NCBI GenBank assembly: GCA_964569575.1
Contig: CAZMTL010000001.1
Location: 67,503-131,502, forward strand
DNA length: 64,000 bases
From: an uncultured Gammaproteobacteria bacterium
Lineage (GTDB): Bacteria > Patescibacteriota > Patescibacteriia > UBA9934
Reading direction: 5' to 3'
Below the pieces are notes generated by a model. It was not told the origin of the DNA. It searched no databases and worked only from the letters and a program-made list of their open reading frames with translations. Position 1 is the first letter of the stretch. Each line of letters begins with the position of its first letter. Positions 956-33,883 of this stretch are shown piece by piece. Made by a program: the position numbers and the translations under genes.

Positions 956-966
956 TTCGGGTCGTG

Positions 967-1485: not shown

Positions 1486-2283
1486 TTATAAAAACAGTAT
1501 CAGTACAATGATTCCGAGAATAATTCGATATACCGCAAACCAGCCGTAGCTTATTTTTTGAACTAAAAAGAGGAGTGTGTTCATGGCGATTACGCCAGAT
1601 ACAAATGCGGTTACAAACCCCACCAGAATCGGAAAGACCGAGATTGCTTCACCTGATTCTATCACGTCGATAAATACCAACATGCCGGCACCGGCGATAG
1701 CGGGAATAGATAGGAGGAACGAAAATCGAGCGGCTGTTTCGCGGTTTAGTCCAGCGAATAATCCGGCACTGATGGTTGAACCTGAACGAGAGGTTCCTGG
1801 AACGAGTGCGAATACCTGTGCGCACCCAATGGCGATCGCTTGCTTCCAGCTTATTCTTGCTGGTTCCGCAACGCTTTTCTTTCTTCTTTTTTGCACTTCG
1901 TCGGCAATCCAAAGAATGATTCCCCAGACGATTAACATGATCGCGATTACCACTGGGTTTCGGAGTGAATCGAGGAATGCGTCGTTAATTAAAAATCCAA
2001 CAAACACAATCGGCAGCGTTGCCATCACAATCTTCCACCCCAGCACTCCTTCGCGGTCGTGTTTTTTGGAGAATAAACCCTGCAAAATATGCTGAATATC
2101 TTCGCGTAAAACCCAAATGATCGCACAGAGCGTTGCTAAATGCGTCGCAACATCGAACACGAGTGACTGTTCTTGCCAACCGAATAATTGCGGAATTAAC
2201 ACCAAGTGCCCCGAACTAGAAATTGGAAGAAACTCGGCGATTCCTTGCACTAAGCCGAGAATGGCGGCCTGAAATATGTTCAT
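1486..2283 (-). CDS. uppP: undecaprenyl-diphosphate phosphatase (BacA/UppP)
   Basis: Polytopic membrane protein with UppP signature motifs ISSSGHL and PGTSRSG. Confidence 0.92.
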   Translation of the reverse strand: MNIFQAAILGLVQGIAEFLPISSSGHLVLIPQLFGWQEQSLVFDVATHLATLCAIIWVLREDIQHILQGLFSKKHDREGVLGWKIVMATLPIVFVGFLINDAFLDSLRNPVVIAIMLIVWGIILWIADEVQKRRKKSVAEPARISWKQAIAIGCAQVFALVPGTSRSGSTISAGLFAGLNRETAARFSFLLSIPAIAGAGMLVFIDVIESGEAISVFPILVGFVTAFVSGVIAMNTLLFLVQKISYGWFAVYRIILGIIVLILFL

Positions 2284-2284
2284 A

Positions 2285-4948: not shown

Positions 4949-6568
4949 TTAAAGTGGAAGATTTCGAGGGATTTCTTCGTTGTTGATTGGTTCGTCTGCC
5001 AAATCGAGCCCTGGTGGAAGCGGCGCCGGCATTCCTGGGCGAGGCATACTAGGGTCGATAAATTCTTCAGGAACGTGCGCTGGTGCCGGAACCTGTACTG
5101 GTCGTGACTGAACTTGCGTGGTACGTGTAGACGTTGGCGCTGTTGGATGCGGCGCGACAAGCGGCTTTGCTTGTGGAAGCGACGATGCTCCATAACCTCC
5201 CTGCACATCGGGCGATGTACGGTTTAGATTTGGCAAATCTGGTTCGTCGACACCAGCGAATTGTAATTCGTTTGGCGCTTCTGAACGTCGCGCGCCAAGC
5301 GATGTAAGTACCGGTGTTCGCGCGTCCGCTGCTGGGAAGTGGAAAATAGTCGCAAGTTCTTCAACGTTTAAAATGTACGGGCTCGCTCCTGTTCCAAACG
5401 ATCGTGCCTTGAACCGATTCACCAAATTACGCTGCCTTCCAGGCAATTCCCATTCTTGCCAGAAGTAATCGTCGTTTGGCGTTGCTGGAGCGTGAAGTCC
5501 AAGCTTGTTCAAGTTTAAATGACCGTACTGATTCCAAATTCCTTTGGTCATCGATGCGATCGTTCCTTTTCGGAAAATTGGCTTTTGTGCAGCGTAGTAA
5601 AAGCGGATTTTTGTGTACCAACCAATTTTTGAAATCTTATTCGCGATTCCGTCGATTTTTTCTTTTTCACGTGGAGTGATTTTGAACGCCGCGAAATCGT
5701 CGGCCTTCTTTTCTTCGCTCGCCGATCCTGTTAAAGAACCACCGGTCACCTGCTCGACGATTTCAGCGGGCAACCAAGAAATCACGTCCGCAATGCCGTT
5801 TCCTGATTTTTTCTTTTCTTCTTTTCCGTACAAACGATTGATTTCTTTCTCCCCTTTCTTCAACCAATCGTCGTCCATGATTGGGTAAATCAACAGCTGC
5901 ATAAAGTAGTACTCCCCTGGCTGCATGCGGCCGATTCCTTCGAGCAACGAAAGAAGAGGATCTTTGAATCGCTGATCCTTTTCACCCGTATGCTCGAAGC
6001 TATCCCATGTTCGAATCGGGAGATAATCTGCATTTGCTAGTTTTACTTCCGAACCCCATAAATCCCAGTTTTCGTTCGGGAATTCTTTTGGCACCACATC
6101 GACGTAATCTTCGTCTACTTCGCTGATTTGTGCTTCTGGGTACTGAGCGTAAAATGCGGCTTCGACCATGTCACGATACTTTGTGACGGTGCGGATATAA
6201 AAACGCACTTCGCCGCCAAGACTGGCGATTTCGAAACTGAACCATCCTTGGATTTTTCCGTCGAGCCATTTTTCTTTCCACGTTGGTGTTGATTTGATTC
6301 CGGCCAAACTGGTAAAGAAGTTTTCCATTCCTTTCGGTGTTTGAATTGCATCTCCAGGAACGTTAACTCGTAATAAATTCCACTTGAGCTTGGAGACGTA
6401 CAACCCTTGTCGGGCGTCGAGCCAGAGTTCGAGCAACCCCCAAATGACAACACAAAAAATAAGAAATCCACCAATGGTAAAAATGATATTGCGTGCCAAT
6501 ACTTCAAACGGCGTTATTTCGAGGTATCGGTTGACACTCTCGATAAGCTCGGAAAAAAATGTTTCCAT
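4949..6568 (-). CDS. hypothetical membrane protein (539 aa, N-terminal TM helix, Pro-rich C-terminus), gene partner of VirD4-like ATPase
   Basis: Single N-terminal hydrophobic segment IIFTIGGFLIFCVVIWGLLELW; co-directional, 33 nt upstream of ATPase gene; no known family recognised. Confidence 0.75.
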   Translation of the reverse strand: METFFSELIESVNRYLEITPFEVLARNIIFTIGGFLIFCVVIWGLLELWLDARQGLYVSKLKWNLLRVNVPGDAIQTPKGMENFFTSLAGIKSTPTWKEKWLDGKIQGWFSFEIASLGGEVRFYIRTVTKYRDMVEAAFYAQYPEAQISEVDEDYVDVVPKEFPNENWDLWGSEVKLANADYLPIRTWDSFEHTGEKDQRFKDPLLSLLEGIGRMQPGEYYFMQLLIYPIMDDDWLKKGEKEINRLYGKEEKKKSGNGIADVISWLPAEIVEQVTGGSLTGSASEEKKADDFAAFKITPREKEKIDGIANKISKIGWYTKIRFYYAAQKPIFRKGTIASMTKGIWNQYGHLNLNKLGLHAPATPNDDYFWQEWELPGRQRNLVNRFKARSFGTGASPYILNVEELATIFHFPAADARTPVLTSLGARRSEAPNELQFAGVDEPDLPNLNRTSPDVQGGYGASSLPQAKPLVAPHPTAPTSTRTTQVQSRPVQVPAPAHVPEEFIDPSMPRPGMPAPLPPGLDLADEPINNEEIPRNLPL

Positions 6569-9676: not shown

Positions 9677-10030
9677 CTATTCTTTTTTGAAGGTGACTTT
9701 GAATGAAGGTACCCATCGGTTGTCGTATTCGTCTTTGATTTCGACGCTTTCGTTTGCAAGGAATTTATTCAACGCTAAATCGGACAGAATTTCGCTGTCG
9801 GTTGCGATTTCGAGCTTCAAATCTTCCATCTTGTCTACCTCGGTCTGAGAATCTGCTTTTACCCCGTTTTCGAGCGATTTCTTTTCTTCCCGCAACGCCT
9901 TCATTTCTTCACCAATTTCTTTATGTCGTTCGATATGAACAAATTGATCGCGGATCATTTTATTCAAATCTCGCAGTTCGTGTTTATTTTTTTCGATCCG
10001 TTTGTAGATTTTTTCGATGTCTTGTTCCAT
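9677..10030 (-). CDS. hypothetical coiled-coil protein (117 aa)
   Basis: Highly charged heptad-rich sequence, no TM; between trhO terminator and secD. Confidence 0.55.
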   Translation of the reverse strand: MEQDIEKIYKRIEKNKHELRDLNKMIRDQFVHIERHKEIGEEMKALREEKKSLENGVKADSQTEVDKMEDLKLEIATDSEILSDLALNKFLANESVEIKDEYDNRWVPSFKVTFKKE

Positions 10031-10130
10031 AAATTTTCGATTGGTTAACGAGCGGCATTATAACATATCGGTTTTTTTTGGATTTGGGGATTGAATTTTA
10101 TAAAGAGACACGACCGATGCCGTGATGCTC

Positions 10131-10160
10131 TTACTTAATAAAGCAATAACGATCCAATGG
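10131..10160 (-). terminator. rho-independent terminator after trhO
   Basis: Perfect 13-bp stem gcaataacgatcc/ggatcgttattgc, loop aat, T-rich tract on minus strand. Confidence 0.6.
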
Positions 10161-10164
10161 ATCG

Positions 10165-11160
10165 TTATTGCAGCACTTTAAATTTTGCTTTTACGCCTTT
10201 GCGTAGTCTTCTTTGTTCTTCGAGTGGAAGAAGGCTGATTTGTTTGCATTCTTCGCTGCAGCAGGTGTTCATTTTTTCCTGACAGCTGTCGCATTGAATG
10301 AAGAGCACATGACACATCGTGTTTTTGCAGTCGACATAAATGTTCGACGGCTCGTTGCATGTTGTGCAGTTGGTTAGAATGTCTTCCGTAATCGTTTCGT
10401 CGCGTCGTGCGTCGAAGACGAAGTTTTTTCCGATAAATTTACTTTCTAGACCTTCTCGTTTTATTTGATGCGCGTAGTCGATGATTCCTCCGTGTAGTTG
10501 ATTTACATCTTTGAATCCGTGATGCTTTAGAAATGCACTTGTTTTTTCACATCGCACTCCGCCGGTGCAGTAAAGCAATACCTTTTCTTCTTCCTTCCCT
10601 TTTAATTCATCGAGCACCATCGGAAGTTCTTCACGAAACGTGAGTGCTTCTGGCGTAATAGCTCCTTCGAAATGCCCGATGGCGCTTTCGTACTTGTTGC
10701 GCATATCTACCACGATTGCTCCACTGTCCATCGCTTCGTTCCATTCCTTGGCGGTTAGATGCGTTCCGACGTTTTCGACATCGTACGAATCAATTGGCAA
10801 ATCATCTGCAACAATTTGACGCTTTACTTTGATGGTTAGTTTCCAAAATGCAATGCCGTTTTCTTCAACTCCTATTTTGAACGGAACGCCGTTGAATTCG
10901 CTAAACGAATCTACGTGCTTTCGAAATGCGTCGAGCGTGTGTTCTGGAACGCTTACTTGTGCGTTAATTCCTTCGGTTGCGACATAAATTCGGCCGAGTA
11001 CCTGAAACGCTGTCCAGTCTTTCCACAATCGGTCGCGCATCGATTTTGGATCTGCTAATCGGACGTATTTGTAGAACGAAAGCGTCACGCGCTTAAACGG
11101 CTCGGCCTGTACTCGGGCGAGTGCGTCTGCTTTCGAAAGTTTGTTGATTAATTTTGCCAT
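10165..11160 (-). CDS. trhO: rhodanese-related sulfurtransferase / tRNA U34 hydroxylase TrhO (UPF0176/YceA family)
   Basis: Rhodanese active-site loop LLYCTGGVRCEK plus C-terminal Cys-rich tail (CTTCN..CDSC..CCSEEC). Confidence 0.82.
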   Translation of the reverse strand: MAKLINKLSKADALARVQAEPFKRVTLSFYKYVRLADPKSMRDRLWKDWTAFQVLGRIYVATEGINAQVSVPEHTLDAFRKHVDSFSEFNGVPFKIGVEENGIAFWKLTIKVKRQIVADDLPIDSYDVENVGTHLTAKEWNEAMDSGAIVVDMRNKYESAIGHFEGAITPEALTFREELPMVLDELKGKEEEKVLLYCTGGVRCEKTSAFLKHHGFKDVNQLHGGIIDYAHQIKREGLESKFIGKNFVFDARRDETITEDILTNCTTCNEPSNIYVDCKNTMCHVLFIQCDSCQEKMNTCCSEECKQISLLPLEEQRRLRKGVKAKFKVLQ

Positions 11161-11260
11161 ATCAGTCAGGTAGATTAGCGAAAAATTTGGGTTGTGTCAA
11201 TTGATTGCATGTCTGAATCTTTAGATCTTAACAGCAGCGCAATGAAAACTGTTTGAGTAG

Positions 11261-11890
11261 CTACAGTACAAACTCCGCCGGTGTACGAATCGAAACAAGG
11301 AGACCGTGGTCGATTTCGACAAGCTGCGTTTCGAATTTTCGAGATGTCTGCATGTATTCGATATATTCCTTCAACTCCTTGGCCATGTCGATGCAGTTAT
11401 CTGCGATCACGATTGCGCCTGGAGCGAGGTGCTTTTCTAGATTTTTGAGGACTGGAAGGTAGCCTTTTTTGTTTGCATCGAGGAAGAGGAAGTCGATTGG
11501 CTTCGACCAGTTACTTGACCAGTCGAGCGCATCTGCGTGGATTTGATCTACTGTTTTTTCGAGGCCTGCTTTCGTGATGTTTTCGTGCGCTTCGTCGAAC
11601 TTGTAGCGTTCTTTCTCGACTGTAATAACGGTCGCGCCAATTTGTTCAGCGGCATCACCCAGCCAAATAGCCGAACAGCCGACCGAAGTTCCAATTTCTA
11701 CAATCGTTGTTGGCGCTTGCTCGAGCACCTTTGCATGCAACCACTCGCCTGTTTTACGCCCGATGGACCATGTTCCGACATTTGTTGTCACGCTCCATTT
11801 GGCCTTCAGCTCCGCCGAAAGTCCGTTTATGCGGATATCTTCGTCGAGTGCTTCGATTTGCTTTAGAATTTGTTCGCGTTGTTGGTTCAT
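11261..11890 (-). CDS. class I SAM-dependent O-methyltransferase (catechol/caffeoyl-CoA OMT-like, PF01596-type)
   Basis: VEIGTSVGCSAIWL SAM-binding motif, LDANKKGY and IVIADNC motifs; start chosen at ATG 11890 (AGAGG 6 nt upstream); track ORF extends to TTG 11929. Confidence 0.78.
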   Translation of the reverse strand: MNQQREQILKQIEALDEDIRINGLSAELKAKWSVTTNVGTWSIGRKTGEWLHAKVLEQAPTTIVEIGTSVGCSAIWLGDAAEQIGATVITVEKERYKFDEAHENITKAGLEKTVDQIHADALDWSSNWSKPIDFLFLDANKKGYLPVLKNLEKHLAPGAIVIADNCIDMAKELKEYIEYMQTSRKFETQLVEIDHGLLVSIRTPAEFVL

Positions 11891-11942
11891 AATTGCCTCT
11901 ATCATGAAAGAAAATCGAGACTTCGTCAATTTGGCTCGTGGC

Positions 11943-11970
11943 TTGACTTTACGCTAAATTTTGCTAGTAT
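11943..11970 (+). promoter_or_regulatory. candidate sigma70-type promoter (TTGACT-16-TAGTAT) upstream of small ORFs at 11993
   Basis: Near-consensus -35/-10 hexamers with 16-nt spacer, about 22 nt upstream of ATG 11993. Confidence 0.45.
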
Positions 11971-11992
11971 TAGTCCCTGAATCTGTGTTTTT

Positions 11993-12367
11993 ATGGCAAA
12001 GCGAGGAAAAACAACCGGAGCGAAGGCCAAATTTGGCGGAAGACATTCTTCGGTTATCGACATCGCTGAGTCACTTCTAAACACGATTAGTAAAAGTCCT
12101 TTGGTAAGTAAGATCTCGCCAGGTCATATTGAATCCAGTCGAAAGAAGAGTAGCGCCGGCCAGCCTAGGCTGAAGTGCACGCTTTTTCCGGCGAAAGTAG
12201 AAGTGACCATTCGGTCGAGCTCGACTCGGCAGATTATTCACGTCTACGGAGACAGCATCGAAGCGATTCGTGATTTGATTCACGCGTCGTGGCGATACGA
12301 CATCACCCACTCGAAGAATGAGGAAACGCAAGATGAATCGGCATCATCTCACCAAGCGACTCGATGA
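11993..12367 (+). CDS. hypothetical protein (124 aa, basic N-terminus)
   Basis: ORF downstream of promoter-like element; no SD; overlaps next ORF by 35 nt. Confidence 0.4.
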   Translation: MAKRGKTTGAKAKFGGRHSSVIDIAESLLNTISKSPLVSKISPGHIESSRKKSSAGQPRLKCTLFPAKVEVTIRSSSTRQIIHVYGDSIEAIRDLIHASWRYDITHSKNEETQDESASSHQATR

Positions 12368-12584
12368 ACTTCTGAACAATCTGGATAGCAAGCGAAGCTT
12401 GCTCGCCATGCACATCAGGAGCGGTGGAGGAAGTCTGTCGTCTCCCGTCGTCGGAAACTCCGACGGTTACCACGACAAGACCGCTCGACTCACCAGTGAC
12501 ATCAAACGCTTGGAGTCCAGAGCTGACCAGGTAAGGCGCGAACTCGACAACCTGTCGACGAAGCACACCACGACCCCCTCCTAG
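12333..12584 (+). CDS. hypothetical coiled-coil protein (83 aa)
   Basis: GAGGAA 7 nt upstream of ATG 12333; charged helical sequence. Confidence 0.4.
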   Translation: MNRHHLTKRLDELLNNLDSKRSLLAMHIRSGGGSLSSPVVGNSDGYHDKTARLTSDIKRLESRADQVRRELDNLSTKHTTTPS

Positions 12585-12805
12585 GGGGTTTTCCCTTTTA
12601 ATCGAGTGAAGCGTTGAATTTTCTGACCATTGATTTCGACTTGTTCCTGAAACATGGCGAGTGGACGAACCCAGACATCTTCTTTGTTTGCGACCGATTG
12701 GTACACCACCATGTCTTCGAGTGTTTCGGAATGTTTCGCGAGCGCGAGGATTGTGTAGTTGTTGCCTTTGTAATGGCGGTAGATTTGGCCTGGAAGTGGG
12801 GGCAT
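12581..12805 (-). CDS. DUF1653-family protein
   Basis: YRHYKGNNYTILALAKHSETLEDMVVYQ...WVRPLAMF matches DUF1653 signature (YxHYKG..Y.v...a.hSET.e..VvYq). Confidence 0.7.
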   Translation of the reverse strand: MPPLPGQIYRHYKGNNYTILALAKHSETLEDMVVYQSVANKEDVWVRPLAMFQEQVEINGQKIQRFTRLKGKTP

Positions 12806-12817
12806 ACAATTGTTAGT

Positions 12818-13348
12818 TTACCTCGTTTTGCGTGAGCGATATAGCCGTTCGGTGAACCCGCCCTCTCGCGTGAACGCCTGCTCTAGCGCGCGAAGTTGCT
12901 GGTCGAGCAAATAATTTGTTTGGTGAACTAAACAAATCGCCACATTCGCCGCGTCATGCGAAAACGCGCTATAGGTCATATATGTCGTATAGGACCTATT
13001 CGACCTATAGGCGAGCGCACGAATTTCGAGCGCTCGCGGGTCGCGCGAATTCCACTGCTCGAACGCGCCCTGGCGTAGGTAGTCTTCGTAGTCCAACAAC
13101 AACTCTTCCTGACTCGCGCGTGCAACGCGGACTAGTTTCAGCTCCGTCTTTTTCGAAGTACCTGAAGTTTGTGATCCTTCGGCAATATTTTGCCGGCCAG
13201 AACGCGCCGCGTGAATCATTTGGTCGCGCATGCGCCAATTCTTTACGAATTTTTCACAAAACTGCACCGTGAAGTCGTATACGATCGTCGCATTCTGATA
13301 ACTTTTCAATTCTCTGAATCCGCCGTGAGCTGAAATTATTTTATTCAT
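12818..13348 (-). CDS. four-helix-bundle protein (TIGR02436-like, '23S rRNA intervening-sequence protein' family) with extended C-terminus
   Basis: ARSGRQNIAEGSQ..SKKTELKLVRVARASQEEL matches the NIAEG core of the family; start set at ATG 13348, downstream of hairpin terminator 13362-13400. Confidence 0.6.
   Translation of the reverse strand: MNKIISAHGGFRELKSYQNATIVYDFTVQFCEKFVKNWRMRDQMIHAARSGRQNIAEGSQTSGTSKKTELKLVRVARASQEELLLDYEDYLRQGAFEQWNSRDPRALEIRALAYRSNRSYTTYMTYSAFSHDAANVAICLVHQTNYLLDQQLRALEQAFTREGGFTERLYRSRKTR
12964..13016. repeat. 'TATAGG' palindromic element, copy 1 (inside 4HB ORF)
   Basis: gcgctataggtcatatatgtcgtataggacctattcgacctataggcgagcgc; inverted repeat CTATAGGTC/GACCTATAG; about 75% identical to 18566-18620. 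Confidence 0.5.
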
Positions 13349-13361
13349 AGTTCGATCAAAA

Positions 13362-13400
13362 AAAGAACCCCCGCAAAACGGGAGTTCTTTTTTCCATTGC
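13362..13400. terminator. bidirectional hairpin terminator
   Basis: A7-gaacccccg-caaaa-cgggagttc-T6. Confidence 0.5.
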
Positions 13401-13433
13401 ACCGCGAATTTTACTTCGCGTCAATGTGGATAA

Positions 13434-13971: not shown

Positions 13972-16740
13972 CTAAGCCCCGTGACATTTCTTAAACTTCT
14001 TTCCACTTCCGCAGGGACATGCTTCGTTTCGGCCTACGTTTGAATAGTCCGCGCCTGGCGCTGATTGGGATGGCGCTGAAGCGAGCTTGTTTGTTCGTGC
14101 TGCGACTGGGTTGCCCATTGTTTTTTGGGCACCTTGAAGGGTTAGTTTTGCTTTTTCGATTAAGCTTGGGGCTAGCTGCACCACTTGTTGGGTTGTGATG
14201 GCTTGGCCTAGGACTTTGAAGACGTTGTAGACGACTTCTTTTTGAATCGCAACTTGTAAGTTTTCGAACATTTCGAAGGCTTCGCGCTTGTATTCAATGA
14301 GTGGGTCGCGTTGGCCGTAGCTGCGGAGTCCGACGGAACGGCGTAGGTATGTCATTTCGTCTAGATGCCGAACCCACATGTTGTCGTAGGCGCGTAACAT
14401 TAATGTTCGGTACATCCGATTGAGCCGTTCTTTTTCGGGAAGTTTTTCTTCCGCGAACGCCATTTTTGATTTCGCTTCTGCGACAAACCCTTCGATCACA
14501 AACGAACGTTGCGTTGCAAGACGTTCTTTGTCGCGCGAAATTTCTTTCAATTCTTGCGCGACGTTTGATTCGAATTCTGCGCTGATTGGCGCGATCGTTT
14601 TTAGGACTTCGATAATTTCTTTTGGATCCCAATCTGCTTTTTCTGTCTTGTTTGCAAACTCTTCTGGCACTTCTGCAGCGCTAGAACCTGTGTGGAACAA
14701 CACGACGCGCTCAACTTCTTCTTCAACCATTTCCAAAATCTTTTCTGCGAATCCTTCTTCTTGTTTAAGCAGTTCGCGGCGTTCGGTGTAGATGGCAGTT
14801 CGGTGCTTGTTCAATACGTCGTCGTATTCTAGAACGTGTTTTCGAGAATCGAAATGACGTCCCTCGACGCGTTGCTGTGCTTTTTCGAGCGAGTTCGAAA
14901 TCATCTTACTTTCGATTGGCATTGTTTCTTCAATCTTGAGTGTTTGCATCACTTTCTTTGCACGATCGCTTCCAAAAATGCGCATCAATTGATCGTCCAT
15001 CGAAACGTAAAATTGTGTCGAACCTGGGTCGCCTTGTCGCCCGGCTCGTCCTCGCAACTGGTTGTCGATGCGTCGCGAATCGTGGCGTTCGGTTCCGATT
15101 ACGTGCAATCCGCCTAGCGCCTTTACCGCTTCTTGTTCTTCCTTATCGAACGGCTGACCGCCAAGCATGATGTCGACTCCGCGTCCTGCCATGTTTGTCG
15201 CTACAGTTACTGCCCCGCGTCGACCGGCTTGCGCGATAATTTCTGCTTCGCGTTCGTGGTTTTTTGCGTTCAATACTTCGTGCTTCACACCTCCCTTTGT
15301 CAGAAGTTGCGAAAGAAGTTCGTTGTCTTCAATCGAAATGGTTCCAAGCAACACGGGCTGCCCTTTCTGCTGTCGCATTTTTACTTCTTCTACCACCGAC
15401 AACAACTTCCCTTTTGTGTTTTGATAAATACGATCGTTCAAATCTTCGCGGGCGATTGGATTGTTGGTTGGCATCTGTACTACTTCCAACTTGTAGATTT
15501 TCGAAAATTCTTCTGCTTCGGTTGCCGCTGTTCCGGTCATTCCCGAAAGCTTGTTGTACATGCGGAAATAATTTTGGAAGGTGATCGTTGCCATCGTACG
15601 ACTTTCTCGGTTCACCTGAACTCCTTCCTTCGCTTCGATTGCTTGGTGCAATCCGTCACTGTATCGACGTCCTTCCATCACGCGTCCGGTAAATTCGTCG
15701 ACAATTTTAACTTCCCCATTTTGCACAACGTATTCTTTGTCTTTTTGAAATAACGCTCGCGCTTTGAGTGCTTGTTCAGCGTGGTGAATGTATTCCAATC
15801 CTCCGCTTGTGTAGAGATTTTCTACACCAAGACGTTTTTCGAGTGTCTCGATTCCGGCATCGGTAAACGTTGACGCACGCATTTTCTCGTCGATGTTGTA
15901 GTGCTCGCCTTCTTTCAAATCTCTTACCAATTCCGCGAAACGGAAATAGAGATCAGCTGATTCTTCCGCAGGAGCCGAGATGATGAGCGGCGTGCGGGCT
16001 TCGTCGATTAAGATTGAGTCGATTTCGTCGACAATCGCGTAGTGAAGTTCGCGCTGCACACGGTCTTCTTCGCGCGTTACCATGTTGTCGCGCAAGTAAT
16101 CGAATCCGAATTCGTTGTTTGTTCCGTACGTAATATCTGCCGCGTACGCTTCACGACGACTTACCGGTCGCAAAAAGTCCATCTGAACTTTGAACGAACC
16201 TGTTTGGTCGCGTTCTTCATCTTCTTCCTTCGCTGCTTTGAACGATTCGTCGTAGATGTATCCGCTTTCGTGCTGAATGCAGGCGACGCTTAATCCAAGA
16301 AATGAAAAAATCTGTCCCATCCAAACCGCGTCACGCTTTGCAAGGTAGTCGTTTACTGTTACGACGTGTACGCCTTTTCCTTCGAGCGCGTTTGCGTAGA
16401 CGGCTAGTGTTGAGGTAAGCGTCTTTCCTTCACCTGTTCGCATTTCGGCAATTTGACCTTTGTGTAGAGTGAGCCCTCCCATCAGCTGAACATCGTAGTG
16501 TCGTTGACCAAGCGTGCGACGAGCGGTTTCGCGTACAATCGCGAATGCTTCATGAATCACGCTGTCGAGCGCCGTGCCTTCCTGAACTTGTTTTTTGAGG
16601 TCGAGCGATTTCTGCTTTAATGCTTCGTCCGACAAGCTAGCCAAACCTGGTTCTAGGTTGGTTATTTTTTCTGCTTCGGTTCGTAATTCTTTTAACGTTT
16701 TCTCGTTCGGATCACCGAAAATTTTGGTCAAAAAACTCAT
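13972..16740 (-). CDS. secA: preprotein translocase ATPase SecA (922 aa); track ORF 13972..17196 is an N-terminal read-through into the GC-rich islet
   Basis: True start MSFLTKIFGDPNEK at 16740; DEAD-motor and C-terminal zinc-finger CPCGSGKKFKKCHG. Confidence 0.95.
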   Translation of the reverse strand: MSFLTKIFGDPNEKTLKELRTEAEKITNLEPGLASLSDEALKQKSLDLKKQVQEGTALDSVIHEAFAIVRETARRTLGQRHYDVQLMGGLTLHKGQIAEMRTGEGKTLTSTLAVYANALEGKGVHVVTVNDYLAKRDAVWMGQIFSFLGLSVACIQHESGYIYDESFKAAKEEDEERDQTGSFKVQMDFLRPVSRREAYAADITYGTNNEFGFDYLRDNMVTREEDRVQRELHYAIVDEIDSILIDEARTPLIISAPAEESADLYFRFAELVRDLKEGEHYNIDEKMRASTFTDAGIETLEKRLGVENLYTSGGLEYIHHAEQALKARALFQKDKEYVVQNGEVKIVDEFTGRVMEGRRYSDGLHQAIEAKEGVQVNRESRTMATITFQNYFRMYNKLSGMTGTAATEAEEFSKIYKLEVVQMPTNNPIAREDLNDRIYQNTKGKLLSVVEEVKMRQQKGQPVLLGTISIEDNELLSQLLTKGGVKHEVLNAKNHEREAEIIAQAGRRGAVTVATNMAGRGVDIMLGGQPFDKEEQEAVKALGGLHVIGTERHDSRRIDNQLRGRAGRQGDPGSTQFYVSMDDQLMRIFGSDRAKKVMQTLKIEETMPIESKMISNSLEKAQQRVEGRHFDSRKHVLEYDDVLNKHRTAIYTERRELLKQEEGFAEKILEMVEEEVERVVLFHTGSSAAEVPEEFANKTEKADWDPKEIIEVLKTIAPISAEFESNVAQELKEISRDKERLATQRSFVIEGFVAEAKSKMAFAEEKLPEKERLNRMYRTLMLRAYDNMWVRHLDEMTYLRRSVGLRSYGQRDPLIEYKREAFEMFENLQVAIQKEVVYNVFKVLGQAITTQQVVQLAPSLIEKAKLTLQGAQKTMGNPVAARTNKLASAPSQSAPGADYSNVGRNEACPCGSGKKFKKCHGA

Positions 16741-16817
16741 ACACGCACGATTTTTTTCTGCTGGATTAACGAGGCTATCTTGCCTCAAAAATGAGAAAAG
16801 ATCAATTTTTCCTGTTA

Positions 16818-16856
16818 CCAAAACGCAAAACCCCGCGAACGCGCGTTCGCAGGGTA
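16818..16856 (-). terminator. rho-independent terminator downstream of cupin gene
   Basis: Palindrome ccccgcgaacgcgcgttcgcaggg followed (minus strand) by TTTTGCGTTTT. Confidence 0.6.
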
Positions 16857-16877
16857 AGCCGATGCTGGGCTCGGGTA

Positions 16878-17327
16878 CTAGTTGACGACGAACTTGTCTT
16901 CGGGTCCGCCGCCGCCGATGTTGATCACCGAGGCCCGGAAGGCCTGCGTGTGCAGAACCTCGTGGACTGCATTGGGCGCTACGATCACGATGCCACCCGC
17001 GGGCACGTGGTACGTCTCCCCGTCGATCCAGATGGTCATCGTGCCGTCGAGCACGGTGTAGATCTCGGTGCCGACGCGGTGGTAGTGACGATCCTCCTTC
17101 GCGCCGTGGGTGAACACGGCGACTTCGAAGGGGGTCGCGCCTCCGCCCGTGACGATGACCGGGCATCGCCCGTTCTCGCCGCTGTCGTGGCTCCACACCG
17201 ACTCGGTGGCCTCGCTCTCAGTTCGGGCGAACAAGCCGACCACGGCCAACTTGCGGGCACAGCGGCCACCGTCCATGAAGTTCGGATCCTTGTCGATCGC
17301 AATGGGGAACACAACCAAGGACTTCAT
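16878..17327 (-). CDS. cupin-domain protein (149 aa) in high-GC islet 2
   Basis: GGAGG 5 nt upstream of ATG 17327; two-motif cupin pattern (..HGAKEDRHYHRVGTEIYTVLDG.. / ..YHVPAGGIVIVAPNAVHEV..). Confidence 0.72.
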   Translation of the reverse strand: MKSLVVFPIAIDKDPNFMDGGRCARKLAVVGLFARTESEATESVWSHDSGENGRCPVIVTGGGATPFEVAVFTHGAKEDRHYHRVGTEIYTVLDGTMTIWIDGETYHVPAGGIVIVAPNAVHEVLHTQAFRASVINIGGGGPEDKFVVN

Positions 17328-17482
17328 CAGACCTCCTTCGGCAGGGCCGAGTTGCGGGATGCAACGCTTCAAACTCTCATATTTTGGCTAAATAGTCAAG
17401 AATACATTGACAAAAGGCTTATTTTTTGCTATTCTGCGCGGTTCTGTTTTGGTAGAAAAACCCCAACGAGGAGAATGACCAG

Positions 17483-17845
17483 ATGGTCAAGTCAGCGCCG
17501 AAGAGTTCCGAAAATTCGCGCACATGCGCACTTCCGCTCGACAAGAATCCGTACAAGCTCTGCTGCCTGCAGATGCTGCAGGATTCGAGCATGATGCAGA
17601 CCGAGATGGAGCGGATGGGCGCAAAGGCGGTGATCGATCGCATCCGCGGATGCTTTCCCGGTCAGATCGTCGACCTTCGGCCGCTCGACCTCTCCAAGAT
17701 CGACGTGACGGGAGTGAACTTCCTTCCCGACATGACGATCGTCAGCTTCGGAATCTTCCAAGCCGTCAACGCTCACCTCGCCTTCTTCGACGGAGAATCC
17801 ACAGTGAAGGCACGGGTCATCGCTCCACCCGAGCTGCGACCATGA
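17483..17845 (+). CDS. hypothetical protein with pentapeptide-repeat-like C-terminal half (120 aa), high-GC islet 2
   Basis: GAGGAGA 9 nt upstream of ATG; QIVDL/RPLDL/SKIDV/TGVNF register. Confidence 0.5.
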   Translation: MVKSAPKSSENSRTCALPLDKNPYKLCCLQMLQDSSMMQTEMERMGAKAVIDRIRGCFPGQIVDLRPLDLSKIDVTGVNFLPDMTIVSFGIFQAVNAHLAFFDGESTVKARVIAPPELRP

Positions 17846-17981
17846 ACATCTCGAGGACCCGGACGACAACTGTCGCCGGGTCCTCTACTCACCTGAGAGT
17901 TTCATTTTGTGATGAAACGTTCGGGTGAGCACTGAACTGCCACATGTTGTGGTAGGTTGAGTGGCTTTTGGAGGGGGAAGT

Positions 17982-18515
17982 ATGCGTAAGCATAAGGCTC
18001 ATCATCACGGGCCGCGACGCGACCGCTACGGTCGCGCGCACGGAGCCGGTAGGGCTCCGCGGTTCGAGCAGAAGAATGCCGCGATCAACGCGGCCTTCAC
18101 CGACAGCCAAGGTGAAGCGAGCGATGCGCTCAACGAGCAGCTCAACGGCGTTCACGATCGTCTCACGGACCTGATCTCCGTGCAGATGCATCGTCAGCGT
18201 CAACCGACGCTGCGCGACATCCACGACTCTCGGTCCGAACTCACCGCCTTGAAGGTCGAGATCGACGACATCTACAGCGCCCTGCGGCAGGGTGGCGTGA
18301 TCCGAGAGGTCGCGCTGCGGATCCAGAAGCTCCGAGGCGTGATCGGTGATCACCTGCTGATGCTCATGCTGATGCAGATGGATCTCGAGAACGACCACCG
18401 CGCTGCGAGCAACACGCCGCAGTGCAACTTCGCACACGACGCCGCCCCGCTCACTGACGCAGGGCCGATCTTCCACGACGTGCCCGACGTCACCGAGGAC
18501 GCGCCCTTGAACTAG
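17982..18515 (+). CDS. hypothetical His-rich protein (177 aa), high-GC islet 2
   Basis: GGAGGGGGA immediately upstream of ATG 17982 (MRKHKAHHHG..); followed by hairpin 18538-18561. Confidence 0.5.
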   Translation: MRKHKAHHHGPRRDRYGRAHGAGRAPRFEQKNAAINAAFTDSQGEASDALNEQLNGVHDRLTDLISVQMHRQRQPTLRDIHDSRSELTALKVEIDDIYSALRQGGVIREVALRIQKLRGVIGDHLLMLMLMQMDLENDHRAASNTPQCNFAHDAAPLTDAGPIFHDVPDVTEDAPLN

Positions 18516-18537
18516 AGCGCGTCTCACACACACGAAC

Positions 18538-18561
18538 GCCCGCGAGTTTTCACTCGCGGGC
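18538..18561 (+). terminator. stem-loop (possible terminator) closing high-GC islet 2
   Basis: gcccgcgag-ttttca-ctcgcgggc, weak T tract. Confidence 0.4.
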
Positions 18562-18565
18562 GTTA

Positions 18566-18620
18566 TCGCGTTTATAGGTCGCATAGGGCCTATAGGACTT
18601 ATTGGACCTATGGAGGGCAG
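18566..18620. repeat. 'TATAGG' palindromic element, copy 2 (intergenic, abuts hpf stop)
   Basis: tttataggtcgcatagggcctataggacttattggacctatgg aligns with 12964-13016. Confidence 0.5.
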
Positions 18621-18632
18621 AGGGCAATGGGA

Positions 18633-18995
18633 CTATTCGGTCCATTCGGTTTCTTCTATTTCGGTTTCCATTACAACTCGGTCGGCGTCTTGGAGTTTCT
18701 CTTTGTAGTCCTTCACCTGTCGGCGTAGTTCGGCGACAGCAGCGTCGATGGCGGCGTAGAGGTCTTCTTTTGTTGCTTCGGCTCGCATTGCAGCGCCAGG
18801 GATGGTCATGTGGAGTTCGGCCATGAATACTTCACCCTTATTTTGATGCATCGCGTCGCGTCCCAATTCCACGCGCACGTCGCAGGGATCAAATTTTGCC
18901 GTTAACTTTGCCACGACTTCTAGTTTTTCTGTTGCGTAATTCTTGATCGCATCGGTCATGTCCATGTTTTTTGCCTTGATTTCTGTAATTCGCAT
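18633..18995 (-). CDS. hpf: ribosome hibernation-promoting factor (HPF/RaiA family)
   Basis: 120-aa sigma-54 modulation protein fold: ..TDAIKNYATEKLEVVAKL.., ..AELHMTIPG.. Confidence 0.88.
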   Translation of the reverse strand: MRITEIKAKNMDMTDAIKNYATEKLEVVAKLTAKFDPCDVRVELGRDAMHQNKGEVFMAELHMTIPGAAMRAEATKEDLYAAIDAAVAELRRQVKDYKEKLQDADRVVMETEIEETEWTE

Positions 18996-19033
18996 ATAAA
19001 AATGTTTATGAGTTACCTCTTTATTTTACTCCG

Positions 19034-20047
19034 CTACCACTCAAGGCGCAAACCTTCTAACAACTCTTTGCTTTTTGGCGCAATCGCGCGGTCGCTTAAT
19101 TTTAGTTGATTTTCCATTCCGACTGAATGCGATAATGCATTAATGGTACGCGTGTAGTTTACGGCATTGAGCAATCGATTCCATGCCTCACCTTTTACCG
19201 TTTCTCCGTTCAGTAATTTTTCCATATCCCGTCGAGCATCTCGAAATCCGTTTTTGCGTTCGAGCGGATCGATCAGTGCATAATTCCACTCCCCTTCTTT
19301 TGGATAGAATGACACGTTATCAGAACCAGCGAGGTCGATAATCTCTCCGTAGCGCTTCGTGTACTCAACTGCCCGATTTATAAAGTCTACAAGCGCTACT
19401 TGCATTGATTCATCTTCTTGATTTCCCTCTACCCAATTCAAAGGTTTGAACGAAGGATGTTCGAGAGGTTTTTCTAATCTGCCTTCACCGTCCAGCAACG
19501 CGGCATTGAGCGCTGTGTATATTTCCGGACTCAACTTTCTGTCATCTTCCGCGTATCGAAAATTGAGCGAACGCCCACTGCTTCTTGCTTGTTGCGGCAT
19601 CTTTTCTTGAATTCTTACCAGAGCCCACGTTTTCACTGGTGTCTCCAGCATTAACCTTGCAACACGATCACTGACTGCGTGATCAATTAGATCTCGATTT
19701 ACTGGTAATGGCAGAAAATAGCTTCGTTGCTTTAATACATGATGTCCAAATACTGAACGTAACTTATCGAATCGTTCACGCTCCTCCTTTAGCGTGCGGT
19801 CAATCACTTCTTTTGGCGGTTTTGTGTCCGTCGGGAAATTGCGCTGCAGGTTGTACTTCAATATTCTCGCCAGCAATTCTTTATCGACTTTTCCGACTAC
19901 GCTTTCATGTTCTGGAAATTCAAATACTAGTTGATGCGAGCCGGCACTTAAAAATCTTGGCTTGTATTTTTTTATTACTTCTTCCTGCTCCAGGTTCTCC
20001 AGCCCTTCATTCATGCGCTCTTCGAAATGTCTTCTTCCTCCTTCCAT
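19034..20047 (-). CDS. hypothetical protein (337 aa), weak protein-kinase-like catalytic motifs
   Basis: DLAGSDNV (HxDxxxxN-like) followed by ALIDPLE (DFG-position-like); cytoplasmic; 5 nt from murB. Confidence 0.6.
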   Translation of the reverse strand: MEGGRRHFEERMNEGLENLEQEEVIKKYKPRFLSAGSHQLVFEFPEHESVVGKVDKELLARILKYNLQRNFPTDTKPPKEVIDRTLKEERERFDKLRSVFGHHVLKQRSYFLPLPVNRDLIDHAVSDRVARLMLETPVKTWALVRIQEKMPQQARSSGRSLNFRYAEDDRKLSPEIYTALNAALLDGEGRLEKPLEHPSFKPLNWVEGNQEDESMQVALVDFINRAVEYTKRYGEIIDLAGSDNVSFYPKEGEWNYALIDPLERKNGFRDARRDMEKLLNGETVKGEAWNRLLNAVNYTRTINALSHSVGMENQLKLSDRAIAPKSKELLEGLRLEW

Positions 20048-20052
20048 AGATG

Positions 20053-21021
20053 TTATTCAAATCCCAAATACTTCACCTCTTCGTGTAGCTGGATGCCGAA
20101 TTCGTTTCGGGCGCGGGTTTTTACGAGGGAGATGAGTTGGGTGACTTGGTCTGCGGTTGCGGCGCCTAGGTTGATGATGAAATTGCCGTGTTCTTCGCTA
20201 ATCATCGCGTCGCCGATTTGCGTTCCTTTTAGACCAAGGCGGTCAACTACCCAGCCGGCAGAAATTCGGCGGGCATCGAGCATGGCGTCGGGAATAACAT
20301 CTAGATCGCGCAGCTGATCGAGCTTTTCGTCGGATTCGATTTCGTAGTTTTTGAACACGCAGCCGGCTGATCCTTTATGGAGCGGCTGTGAAGATTTTCG
20401 TTTTGCTAAGTTTTGATCGAGTTCTGCTTTGAGTGTTTCGACGTCACCGCTAGGTAGTTCGAAATACACACGTAGAACGACATCGTTTGATTCTTTCAAA
20501 ATGGATTCGCGGTAGCCCATATGTAAATCATCTCTCACCACATCCACTACTTCACCATCGCGAAGCACTTCAATGCGAGTCAGATAATCTTTCGTTTCTC
20601 CTCCAAAGCATCCTGCATTCCCGCGCACCGCGCCGCCGATGGTTCCGGGAAGCGAAATTGCCCAGGTGAATCCAGCCAGTCCCGCATTTGCCGAAGCTCG
20701 GGCGAGAGACGCAGAGATAACACCCGCGTCGGCCGTCATTACATTCCCTTCAATAATAAACTCGCGCATCGCCATTTTTAAAATCAAGCCGTCAAATCCA
20801 GCGTCAGCCGCAAGTGTGTTGGACCCCCCACCAAGAACGAAGTAGTTGATGTGGTTGTTTTTACAAATCTCGATTGCTTTTTCCAATTCTTCCACGCTCT
20901 TCACTTCGGCAAACCATTTCGCCGGACCACCAATACGAAAGTTGAGATGCTTTGCGAGCGGTTCGCCTTCCTTCAGCCGGGCTCCGAAGATGTTTTTTAG
21001 TTGGTCGGTGATATTTTGCAT
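20053..21021 (-). CDS. murB: UDP-N-acetylenolpyruvoylglucosamine reductase MurB
   Basis: FAD-binding VLGGGSNTL motif and MurB C-terminal domain; start set at MQNITDQ. Confidence 0.9.
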   Translation of the reverse strand: MQNITDQLKNIFGARLKEGEPLAKHLNFRIGGPAKWFAEVKSVEELEKAIEICKNNHINYFVLGGGSNTLAADAGFDGLILKMAMREFIIEGNVMTADAGVISASLARASANAGLAGFTWAISLPGTIGGAVRGNAGCFGGETKDYLTRIEVLRDGEVVDVVRDDLHMGYRESILKESNDVVLRVYFELPSGDVETLKAELDQNLAKRKSSQPLHKGSAGCVFKNYEIESDEKLDQLRDLDVIPDAMLDARRISAGWVVDRLGLKGTQIGDAMISEEHGNFIINLGAATADQVTQLISLVKTRARNEFGIQLHEEVKYLGFE

Positions 21022-21090
21022 ATAATATTTTTTCTTCAAATCTATTTGTCATTCTTGCTCCTTGTACAGAAGGGGGTCGAGCTAGAATTT

Positions 21091-22362
21091 CTAACCAACT
21101 AATTCCCTCGCCACGCCGTCGATTGAACCGGCGCCCATGAAGACAATAATGTCGTTTGATTGGGTGAGCTGTTCTAGCAGGTTTTTTACTTCAGTGTGAT
21201 TTGCGGCGTACTGCACTTCTTTAATCGTCTTACGCATTTTTACTGATTCAGCCATGTCTTTGGATGACTCGAATTTTTCTTCGGTGCGACCTTCTACTTC
21301 GTAGATTTCTGCAAGAACGAGGACGTCGGCGGCATCGAAGGATTTTGTGAATTCTTCGAACAGCTCGTGTGTGCGTGAATGTTGGTGAGGTTCGAAGATC
21401 ACTACCAGTCGGCGATCAGGATATTGGTATTTGAAGCCTTCGATGGATCCGATTACCGCCGTTGGGTGGTGCGCGTAGTCGCTAAAGATGTCCGCTTCTT
21501 TCCACGTACCAACGTGTTCAAATCGGCGCCAGGTTCCCTTGAACGATTCGAGCGCGGTTTTGATTACTGAGTCTTCAATGCCAATTGTACGCCCAACCAT
21601 TTCTGCGGCTGCGGCGTTTAGTCGGTTGAATGCTCCTGGGATCGATAAGTTGATGTCGGTTTTTAGCTCACCAAAATACACGCCGTTTGTGGCTTTGATT
21701 TTTTGAGATTCTTTGTCTTTTCCATTTAATACAACCGTCTCGACAGAATCCACCCATGTTTGAAATGTGTCGCGGATGTGGTCGATGTCGCGGTAGAAAT
21801 CGAGGTGGTCTTCTTCGATGTTGGTAATGACCGCGATGGTTGGCTGAATGTGCAGCATGTTTGCCATGTGCTCGCAGGCTTCTACCACAAACCACTCACC
21901 GTTTCCGACGCGCAGATTCTTCTGTTCCCATCCTGGAACCATCGTTCCTAAAATAACGGTTGGGTCGAGGCCGGCTTCGATCAGCACGGAAGCGATCATT
22001 GCTGTTGTTGTACTCTTTCCGTTCGTTCCGCTGATTGCAATCGTCTTTTTTGTCTTTGCGAGTTCGCCTAAAAATTCAGGGTACGACCATTGCGTAATGC
22101 CGTGTTCTTTTGCATGCCGTCGTTCGATGTTCGATTCTGCGATCGCTGCTGAATAAATCACCAGATCACAGCCTTCTGGGACGGTGTTTTCGGGACTGTT
22201 GATCGCAACAGCAGCTCCTTGATCTGCAACATCTTGCGTAATCTTCGATGCCGTTTTGTCTGAACCTGTTACGCTCGCCCCTTGCGCCAACCACCATTTT
22301 GCGGCAGCCGACACACCGATTCCTCCGATTCCAATGAAATGCACTTGTTTTGCTTGAATCAT
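21091..22362 (-). CDS. murC: UDP-N-acetylmuramate--L-alanine ligase MurC
   Basis: Rossmann N-terminus IGIGGIG, P-loop GTNGKSTTT, Mur ligase middle/C domains; start at MIQAKQVHF. Confidence 0.9.
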   Translation of the reverse strand: MIQAKQVHFIGIGGIGVSAAAKWWLAQGASVTGSDKTASKITQDVADQGAAVAINSPENTVPEGCDLVIYSAAIAESNIERRHAKEHGITQWSYPEFLGELAKTKKTIAISGTNGKSTTTAMIASVLIEAGLDPTVILGTMVPGWEQKNLRVGNGEWFVVEACEHMANMLHIQPTIAVITNIEEDHLDFYRDIDHIRDTFQTWVDSVETVVLNGKDKESQKIKATNGVYFGELKTDINLSIPGAFNRLNAAAAEMVGRTIGIEDSVIKTALESFKGTWRRFEHVGTWKEADIFSDYAHHPTAVIGSIEGFKYQYPDRRLVVIFEPHQHSRTHELFEEFTKSFDAADVLVLAEIYEVEGRTEEKFESSKDMAESVKMRKTIKEVQYAANHTEVKNLLEQLTQSNDIIVFMGAGSIDGVARELVG

Positions 22363-22535
22363 ACCTTTGCATGTTAGCAGATTTTGACCGTTTTTGGCAT
22401 GCACCGTACAATGTTGAGCAATATGTTGTAATTTTATCTATCCTAGACCTTCAGACGCACTCGAGGCGAGAGATTGCCGCCCTTCGCTCGCAATGACCGA
22501 GTTGAGATGCAGCGAAATCGTCTTTCGCCGCGCAA

Positions 22536-22625
22536 CCACCCCTAGCCCCTCCTTGAAAAGGAGGGGAAGCACTGCGAGAATCGATGGATCCCGGATCGGG
22601 TCCGGGATGACGAGAATTCGAGTGC
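22536..22625. repeat. MITE-like composite hairpin repeat, copy 4 (reverse orientation)
   Basis: revcomp = ctcgtcatcccggacccgatccgggatccatcgattctcgcagtgcttcccctccttttcaaggaggggctaggggtgg; creates shadow ORF 22438..22647. Confidence 0.6.
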
Positions 22626-22691
22626 GGGACAACTCGAGTTCGAACAACCTCAGAACTCCAACCCTACTCCCTAACCCCTACTCCCTCCCCT

Positions 22692-23939
22692 ATGATTTTA
22701 CACACTCAAGACCCTGCGATTGCTCGATCGCTTCAGAAAGAATTACAACGACAACGTGAAGGACTCGAAATGATTCCTTCTGAAAATTTTGTGTCGCCGG
22801 CAGTGCTCGAGGCACTTGGTTCAGTTGCTACAAACAAGTACGCAGAAGGATATCCTGGAAAACGCTACTATGGCGGATGTGAATTTATCGATGAAATTGA
22901 ACAGCTGGCGATCGACCGCGCGAAGGAATTATTTGGCGCCGAACATGTAAACGTTCAGCCTCATTCTGGAGCACCGGCCAACATTGCTGTGTATGCGGCG
23001 CTGTTGAAGCCGGGTGACACGGTTCTTGGTATGGATTTGTCGCACGGTGGTCACTTAACGCACGGGCATCCAGTGACTGAATCGGCGAAGATGTATAACT
23101 TTATTCGGTATAAAACAAATGCTGAAGGCTTGCTTGATTTGGAAAATTTGCGCGCGATGGCGATTGAACATAAACCGAAGATGATTTTGGTTGGCTACTC
23201 TGCTTATTCGCGCGAGATTGATTTTGCGCGTGTGAAAGAAATTGCCGACGAAGTGGGTGCGATCACCATGGCAGATATTGCACACATTGCTGGATTGATT
23301 GCGGCTGGTGAAATGAATAATCCTGTTCCGTTATTTGACGTCGTAACTACAACAACGCATAAAACATTGCGCGGACCGCGTGGTGGAATGATTATGTGCA
23401 AAGCCGTCCACGCGAAAGCGATCGATAAAGCGGTGTTCCCTGGGTTGCAAGGTGGTCCACACGAAAACGGTATTACGGCAAAGGCGGTGGCGTTTAAAGA
23501 AGCGCTCGACCCGTCGTTTAAAGAATATGCTCGTCAAACTAAGGCAAACGCCAAGGTACTCGAGCGCGTGTTGCGCGATACGGGATTCACCCTTGTGTTT
23601 GGTGGGACCGATAATCACCTTTTATTGATAGACGTTACAAGCAAGGGCGTGACCGGAAAAGAAGCCGAGGAGGCGCTCGACAAAGCAGGCATTACCGTAA
23701 ACAAAAACATGATACCCGACGACACACGTTCGCCGTTTGATCCTTCGGGCATTCGACTTGGAACACCAGCACTTACCACTCGTGGAATGAAAGAAGTAGA
23801 AATGGAACAGATTGGCGCATGGATCGCGGAGGCGATCGTGAGTCACAAGGATGAAGGGGCGCTTGCGCGGATTCGGGAAGAGGTGAAAAAGATGACGGCA
23901 GAGTTTCCGCTTTATGGCGGGGTTTCGTACGCCGAATAG
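22692..23939 (+). CDS. glyA: serine hydroxymethyltransferase
   Basis: Full-length SHMT: ..[11 protein letters not shown].., PLP-lysine region [14 protein letters not shown]. Confidence 0.95.
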
Positions 23940-33846: not shown

Positions 33847-33883
33847 ACGTGCTCCTCGAATACGTTTTAACAAAATAAAGAAG

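Follow-up and report, generated by a model that had tools for sequence, protein, structure and literature searches.

We analysed a 64-kb stretch of genomic DNA, hereafter the window (positions 67,503 to 131,502 of contig CAZMTL010000001.1, assembly GCA_964569575.1), whose SecA protein sequence places the host among the Patescibacteria, or candidate phyla radiation (CPR); the closest SecA relatives are 62-66% identical. The spacer between the genes hpf and secA holds an islet of GC-rich DNA about 1.75 kb long, running from about 16,806/16,830 to 18,565, with a cupin gene, two further genes that we call g2 and g3, and a set of promoter-like sites and hairpins. The features of the locus are listed below (aa, amino acids; GC3, GC content at third codon positions; ORFan, a gene without detectable relatives).

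13972-16740, minus strand: secA, 922 aa, the host gene on the left flank (N-terminal alignment, public record)
16741-17196, minus strand: spurious in-frame extension of secA, 152 codons that cross the spacer and run into the cupin gene
16777-16805, minus strand: promoter-like site upstream of secA (TTGATC-17 nt-CAAGAT), read by eye
16819-16855, minus strand: left hairpin with T-run, resembling an intrinsic terminator in its fold, downstream of the cupin gene
16878-17327, minus strand: cupin gene, a monocupin of 149 aa (Pfam, PDB alignment, motifs, GC3)
17407-17435, plus strand: sigma-70-like promoter for g2 (TTGACA-17 nt-TGcTATTCT), a consensus match only
17483-17845, plus strand: g2, an ORFan of 120 aa (codon periodicity, ribosome-binding site)
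17853-17963, plus strand: three stem-loops filling the spacer between g2 and g3 (folding energy)
17982-18515, plus strand: g3, an ORFan of 177 aa (codon periodicity, ribosome-binding site)
18535-18564, no strand assigned: right hairpin between the convergent g3 and hpf, a perfect GC-rich stem of 13 bp
18633-18995, minus strand: hpf, 120 aa, the host gene on the right flank (Pfam Ribosomal_S30AE, 7e-22)

Composition and genes of the islet

An earlier note on this DNA had described an islet of about 63% GC, with three small genes that each follow a GGAGG-type ribosome-binding site, flanked by terminator hairpins and followed on the right by a TATAGG element. Elevated GC is borne out at 59.6%, so that the figure given was slightly too high. 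The three open reading frames (ORFs) lie where the note had put them, a purine-rich site can be read from the sequence before each, and we recovered both hairpins (left, 16830-16855; right, 18535-18564) as well as the TATAGG element (18573-18611).

GC content is 0.596 over 16790-18565 and 0.601 over 16856-18534, compared with 0.477 for the whole window. In 200-nucleotide (nt) sliding segments it climbs from 0.40-0.46 at 16600-16899 to 0.60-0.68 at 16800-17299, dips to 0.47-0.49 in the divergent intergenic and promoter region (17300-17599), holds at 0.55-0.65 until about 18599, and thereafter returns to 0.41-0.46.

Codon statistics set the three genes apart in the same way. Across about 45 host ORFs, GC3 ranges from 0.35 to 0.60 with a median of 0.48; in the islet ORFs it is 0.76-0.87 (first, second and third codon positions: 0.61/0.44/0.87 for the cupin gene, 0.58/0.41/0.76 for g2 and 0.70/0.40/0.81 for g3). 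Relative synonymous codon usage (RSCU) in the islet correlates with that of the host at r = 0.21 only, and with that of a second GC-rich islet in the window (33.8-35.2 kb) at r = 0.77. The codon-position GC of g2 and g3 departs from a flat profile by 8-11 sampling standard deviations, which indicates real or recently real coding. Long ORFs of 231 and 125 aa also lie opposite the islet genes, and we regard these as shadow frames because periodicity is strongest in the frames that begin with an ATG behind a ribosome-binding site and are followed by a hairpin.

The cupin gene begins with an ATG that lies 4 nt from a GGAGG ribosome-binding site (17332-17336, reverse complement). Residues 72-135 of its product match the Pfam family Cupin_2 (PF07883) with 45 bits, for a gathering cut-off of 27.2, and E = 8.7e-12, and the top PDB match is the quercetin 2,3-dioxygenase YxaG of Bacillus subtilis (E = 1.7e-9), for which both cupin domains align. 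Motif 1 is complete (G75-AKEDR-H81-Y-H83-RVGT-E88-IYTVLD-G95, following the pattern G-X5-H-X-H-X4-E-X6-G) and aligns with HYHEYHTE of YxaG; in motif 2, VAPNAVH122EV aligns with VPANTVHSY, making H122 the distal histidine. From these alignments it seems safe to call the product a metal-binding monocupin with its His/His/Glu/His site intact, probably a metalloprotein that modifies or binds small molecules. With YxaG (PDB 1y3t, 2h0v) and Cupin_2 proteins such as TM1459 it has in common the Cupin_2 profile, motif 1 and a distal histidine aligning with the YxaG metal ligands; unlike YxaG-type cupins, it has a single domain and an N-terminal extension of about 65 residues, and the likeness is limited to about 55 core residues. 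A word-index search of 5.8 billion proteins returned no relative, and neither the PLSDB plasmids (tblastn) nor IMG/VR contained a match. Among PHROGs, there were only weak matches to two families without known function (8e-5 and 9e-3).

The g2 gene has GAGGAG at 17468-17473, 9 nt from its ATG, and g3 has GGAGGGGG at 17970-17977. No Pfam family matches g2 even at E <= 10, nor does any PDB entry, and its single-sequence AlphaFold2 (AF2) model, with a predicted local distance difference test (pLDDT) score of 45 and no visible beta-helix, is too poor to use. Pentapeptide-repeat proteins (PF00805) typically carry at least 8 A(D/N)LXX pentads in a long tandem array; g2 has four consecutive pentads only (VDLRP LDLSK IDVTG VNFLP, residues 63-82), and it lacks both a match to the Pfam pentapeptide profile and a long array, so that "pentapeptide-like", as it was first called, is a weak label. 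The third gene had been called His-rich, which holds for the N-terminus of g3: this end is basic and has 5 histidines in its first 20 residues (6.8% overall), and the C-terminal tail is acidic. The single-sequence AF2 model of g3 is a three-helix bundle with a pLDDT of 69, for which Foldseek found no significant PDB match, the best being a plant BAG domain at E = 0.08. We discarded a phmmer match of g3 to leucine-rich-repeat (LRR) proteins in the PDB (3.4e-4) as compositional noise, no single stretch of it passing alone.

The g2 and g3 genes are both singletons. Run exhaustively against 1.84 billion representatives with the g2-g3 concatenate as query, phmmer returned nothing except the proteins themselves, and the word-index search of 5.8 billion proteins gave the same outcome; there was no match in IMG/VR or among the PLSDB plasmids (tblastn), and no Pfam, NCBIfam or PADLOC assignment for either.

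Signals and boundaries

The candidate promoter of g2 agrees with the consensus at 10 of 12 positions, has the extended -10 TG, and is the sole such site in 16500-19100; it sits in the AT-richer divergent region between the cupin gene and g2 (17328-17482). Downstream of the cupin gene, the left hairpin (16830-16855) has 11 pairs, 7 of them G-C, and a 4-nt loop, followed by TTTTGCGTTTT on the minus strand, and its stem persists in the minimum-free-energy fold (z = -2.3 in a 61-nt context). The right hairpin folds at -30.6 kcal/mol (z = -6.0). Both have the stem core CCCGCGA/TCGCGGG and are the sole two matches to this pattern in 64 kb; two matches arose in 1 of 100 shuffles. The three stem-loops between g2 and g3, which the earlier note had not mentioned, reach -74.8 kcal/mol (z = -9.2) on the plus strand and -57.8 kcal/mol on the minus strand, and could form a terminator, an attenuator or a stabiliser. 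Rfam returned no family at gathering score anywhere in the window, and sub-threshold matches only at the right hairpin.

How sharply can the islet be delimited? The promoter-like site upstream of secA follows a layout, TTGAYY-17-CAMRAT, that can also be read by eye, unscored, in the two closest relatives at this locus, L002 and L082. We infer that it is the retained secA promoter and that, on the left, the clearly native DNA ends with it. Because the site recurs in all three genomes, the left junction is placed within 16806-16829. The right junction probably lies at 18565-18572, because the right hairpin is GC-rich and the other perfect-stem hairpins in the window are mostly AT-richer, several having A/T-tract arms; the right hairpin looks islet-derived.

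The same spacer in related genomes

The arrangement in which hpf lies directly upstream of secA on the same strand is widespread in Patescibacteria and Bacillota. As the earlier note had proposed, we compared the spacing with that in relatives: by tblastn estimates, the gap is mostly 27-330 bp and its GC usually does not exceed that of the locus; in the window the spacer measures 1,892 bp. With tblastn, no homologue of the cupin, g2 or g3 was found in any of 85 related loci.

The two closest relatives, whose hpf products are 56-57% identical to that in the window, also have enlarged spacers. In L002 the spacer measures about 890 bp (893 by tblastn) and contains two opposite-strand ORFs with GGAGG sites and a GC3 of 0.69-0.71, compared with 0.53-0.58 in the host genes of L002. 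In L082 it measures about 670 bp (681 by tblastn) and contains a single ORF on the opposite strand, which is equipped with a GGAGG site as well as a hairpin and T-run and has a GC3 of 0.51 compared with 0.35-0.38 in the host genes of L082. The spacer ORFs of both thus exceed their own hosts in GC3 by about 0.14. We dropped a common origin of the three spacers, because blastn and tblastx detected no similarity among them at the DNA or protein level. The enlarged, GC-elevated spacers of the two closest relatives, with their unrelated ORFs, make this spacer look like a landing site specific to the lineage.

The L002 cassettes have a further regularity. They close with near-identical 30-nt hairpins (5109-5141 and 5650-5690; CGCCCCGC...GCGGGGCG) and open with near-identical CGGAGGTNGTCATG contexts, which suggests a common source or a duplicated module.

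A proposed horizontally acquired set of expression units

We propose, with a probability of roughly three in four, that the islet is a small, horizontally acquired set of self-contained expression units in a spacer of a Patescibacteria chromosome. The reading is carried by the foreign composition, the coding periodicity, the cupin with its metal site, the absence of the islet from relatives, and the presence of other cargo in the same spacer of the two nearest of them. Because the usual mobility signatures were not found, we can only infer that the DNA arrived by uptake and illegitimate recombination, with no dedicated integrase. The cupin unit would be read in the direction of hpf and secA and stopped by its own hairpin and T-run before the secA promoter. 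The g2 and g3 genes would be read in the opposite direction from the near-consensus sigma-70 promoter in the AT-richer divergent region, and the 13-bp hairpin would halt their transcription ahead of a collision with hpf. An insertion beside two essential genes would be tolerated because the units bring their own ribosome-binding sites and stop signals and the secA promoter is kept; the role of the islet would be accessory rather than housekeeping.

Several results weigh against this proposal. Had the DNA come recently from a well-sampled high-GC phylum, relatives should be present in the databases; the earlier note had predicted best hits in such phyla, and searches with the proteins returned no hits at all. 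With no database relatives besides the proteins themselves, a donor cannot be named. Support from families or structures is lacking for g2. Among the predicted signals of autonomous units, g2-g3 have a good consensus promoter and the cupin gene a good terminator, set against a weak U-tract at the right hairpin and no consensus promoter seen for the cupin gene. ARAGORN found no tRNA or tmRNA in the 64-kb window. There is no integrase or transposase in the islet or in the neighbouring ORFs tested for integrase domains (9,677-13,402 and 18,633-23,939), a scan that covered these intervals and not the whole window; the neighbouring genes are murC, SHMT, murB, hpf, secA and an IVP-family gene. No direct repeat of at least 8 nt is common to both junction regions, and the 7-mers that are common to them stem solely from the hairpin stems. 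Core sites of the attC type are absent from the islet boundaries: RYYYAAC/GTTRRRY matches occur only at 17956, 18128 and 18140, none of them at the boundary hairpins. Finally, an independent Logan assembly of run SRR15237806 speaks for the proposal in being identical to 17617-18574, the islet interior, but it ends at the TATAGG repeat element, so that its support does not reach the junctions.

We also considered a diversity-generating retroelement, given the nearby 23S_rRNA_IVP/Avd-family gene that contains a copy of the 39-nt TATAGG repeat, and rejected it, as there is no nearby reverse transcriptase and the repeat differences are not adenine-specific.

Comparison with known systems helps to place the islet. 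An aquifer survey has documented horizontal transfer and genomic islands in Patescibacteria and reported that most transfers took place between members of this group (PMC12455944). The islands described there resemble the islet in being compositionally deviant, sporadic accessory DNA in a streamlined CPR genome that encodes mostly proteins of unknown function; in contrast, the islet is far smaller (1.75 kb, three genes), has no mobility genes, tRNA or detectable donor, and has no relative that we found in Patescibacteria or elsewhere. By the classical tests for genomic islands, it has deviant composition and sporadic distribution, and it lacks tRNA linkage, a mobility gene and direct repeats.

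The layout also recalls two other kinds of element. Morons, according to what is reported in the lambdoid-phage literature by Hendrix and colleagues, are autonomous promoter-gene-terminator units between conserved genes, often of deviant composition. The islet is similar in its promoter-like site, ribosome-binding sites, terminator-like hairpins, conserved neighbours and different GC, but it is chromosomal, lies between the housekeeping genes hpf and secA, and has no phage-family assignment and no informative PHROG or IMG/VR match. Integron cassettes, like the units in the islet and in L002, are short ORFs, each with a 3' hairpin, stacked in one spot; unlike them, the islet genes have a candidate promoter of their own and run in both directions, and the hairpins resemble ordinary terminators. 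No IntI was found among the ORFs tested around the islet.

On the preferred reading of horizontal acquisition, the islet is a real but fairly ordinary product of gene transfer that leaves current concepts unchanged. The genomes of Patescibacteria are very small, and a dependence on other cells is assumed for these bacteria. For such streamlined bacteria, the source of their few accessory genes and the sites at which these can safely be inserted are of some interest. Here, foreign DNA would have landed between the essential genes hpf and secA and left both undisturbed, and the other cargo that the two nearest relatives have there suggests that the site tolerates such landings. Mildly unusual are the GC-richness of the ORFans relative to their host, the unrelated cargo in one spacer of three lineages, and the highly structured spacer between g2 and g3; ORFans are said to be usually AT-rich, at least in the work of Daubin and Ochman on E. 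coli.

Alternative explanations

The islet might instead be the remnant cargo of a decayed mobile element (a prophage, an integrative element or a plasmid) that has lost its mobility genes and left moron-like passengers behind. Such an origin would fit the promoter-gene-terminator layout and a composition unlike the flanks, the weak matches of the cupin to two PHROG families of unknown function, the bounding hairpins with their common CCCGCGA/TCGCGGG core, unique as a pair in 64 kb, and the near-identical terminator hairpins of the two L002 cassettes. We nevertheless judge it unlikely: relatives from phages, plasmids or defence systems turned up for none of the three proteins, integrase, att-like repeat and tRNA are all missing, and only 1.75 kb is present between two intact flanking genes with the secA promoter intact as well, nothing in it identifying an element.

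A further possibility concerns the genes themselves. If g2, g3 or both were non-functional, as open frames in stop-poor GC-rich DNA or as decaying pseudogenes, the cupin would be the only real gene. There are no homologues on which purifying selection could be judged, the g2 model has a pLDDT of only 45, the public NCBI-derived set has 83 aa of g2 and no g3, and long antisense ORFs are present too. Against this stand the strong periodicity in exactly those frames in which an ATG, a ribosome-binding site and a hairpin further downstream come together, the three-helix bundle predicted for g3 from a single sequence (pLDDT 69), and the choice of g3 by an independent gene caller, which together make the possibility distinctly unlikely.

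A more far-reaching version of the acquisition scenario would make the spacer a dedicated capture site that repeatedly takes up integrase-free, hairpin-bounded ORFan cassettes with their own ribosome-binding sites from an unsampled, GC-richer gene pool, with the CCCGCGA/TCGCGGG hairpins taking part in the insertion mechanism and the other two islets of the window, similar in codon usage, formed by the same process. We regard this as improbable. If it were true, the gene pool could be, for example, that of the organism on which the CPR cell lives, or an unknown class of mobile elements.

Could the genes be native? They might be fast-evolving and lineage-specific, lying in a hypervariable spacer whose high GC results from a local mutational or recombinational bias; the spacer is filled and GC-elevated in all three nearest genomes, and ORFan status is expected of fast-evolving or newborn genes. 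Yet the three spacers have no detectable DNA or protein similarity, the GC3 values of 0.76-0.87 and the order GC3 > GC1 > GC2 suggest that the genes spent a long time in a GC-rich genome, the cupin, far from being a new gene, is well formed and belongs to an old superfamily, and the AT-richer promoter region inside the islet speaks against a uniform local bias, all of which leaves a native origin highly doubtful.

Least plausible of all is a chimeric assembly, in which a fragment from a GC-rich organism was mis-spliced into a Patescibacteria contig: the Logan contig covers 17617-18574 only, so that independent evidence at the junctions is missing, but this explanation would need two precise false joins in a 159-kb contig, both in one spacer and neither touching hpf, secA or the secA promoter, and it is very unlikely because the inserted DNA lies exactly between two genes, the secA promoter has been preserved, analogous insertions occupy this spacer in two relatives assembled independently (as metagenome-assembled genomes or metagenomes), and a different assembler bridges a sister islet of the same genome on both sides (a second Logan contig of 3.9 kb from the same run, identical to window positions 1-2843 and spanning both junctions of the islet at 823-1400).

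Consequences for annotation

The secA gene starts at the ATG at 16740, and the N-terminus encoded there, MSFLTKIFGDPN, lines up with residue 1 of the SecA proteins of relatives; the exact 922-aa protein is on public record for the 159-kb NCBI contig. The secA frame had been said to stay open for 152 codons beyond the true start, and we found the same: the extended ORF encodes 1074 instead of 922 aa from a GTG at 17196, and the codon-position GC of the extension (0.78/0.58/0.45) is not coding-like. As an annotation trap, this would catch a naive longest-ORF caller, but not the public NCBI-derived set, in which SecA has its correct length of 922 aa. The genes that annotation has in fact missed or cut short are those of the islet: the cupin sequence is missing from the public protein collection in any form, g2 has only itself as a database relative, called from Met38 as 83 aa on the NCBI contig, and g3 is present solely from the Logan assembly, whose gene caller chose the exact g3 ORF. 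Annotators should be aware that gene callers trained on the host miss or truncate islet genes and that longest-ORF logic adds 152 false codons to secA.

Further features of the window

The TATAGG element at the right of the islet has a second copy in the window:

18573-18611, plus strand: 39-nt element of 9-nt-periodic TATAGGNCC units (TATAGG), downstream of hpf and just outside the islet, of host-like composition
12971-13009, minus strand: second copy of the 39-nt element, inverted, 85% identical, E = 5e-5

The second copy is an in-frame part of the 23S_rRNA_IVP (four-helix-bundle) gene (12818-13402), in which it encodes YRSNRSYTTYMTY; the element may be a small repeat that can insert without breaking a reading frame. 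Short runs similar to it occur in a few IMG/VR contigs (L088, L092, L095 and L093); most other viral matches to the TATAGG pattern are unrelated collagen-like Gly-Pro-Ile coding repeats and were set aside.

The region between murB and hpf contains an ORF of 337 aa (19034-20047, minus strand) of host-like composition and without family assignment, which we take for another lineage-specific insertion because the murB-hpf gap is only 36 bp in L002.

Elsewhere in the window, a second high-GC islet of about 59% GC (33,800-35,190) lies between the gene for a 3022-aa surface-type protein and folD. Its two ORFs, both on the minus strand, follow AAGGAG or GGAGG sites and have a GC3 of 0.76-0.79; one of them (33930-34346) has a weak Pentapeptide match (4e-5). 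A third, smaller GC-elevated islet (823-1400) lies between the genes for pyruvate kinase and uppP; its 142-aa ORF (967-1395, minus strand) has a GGAGG site and a GC3 of 0.68 and forms a singleton cluster at 90% identity. A GC bump at 2551-3100 is not an islet, because it is accounted for by the C-terminal tail of an 876-aa protein (2285-4915, minus strand) that has TrwB/TraG-type coupling-protein domains followed by a long, low-complexity, GC-elevated tail. A 44-nt repeat, 91% identical between its copies, is found at 2749-2791 and 47037-47080.

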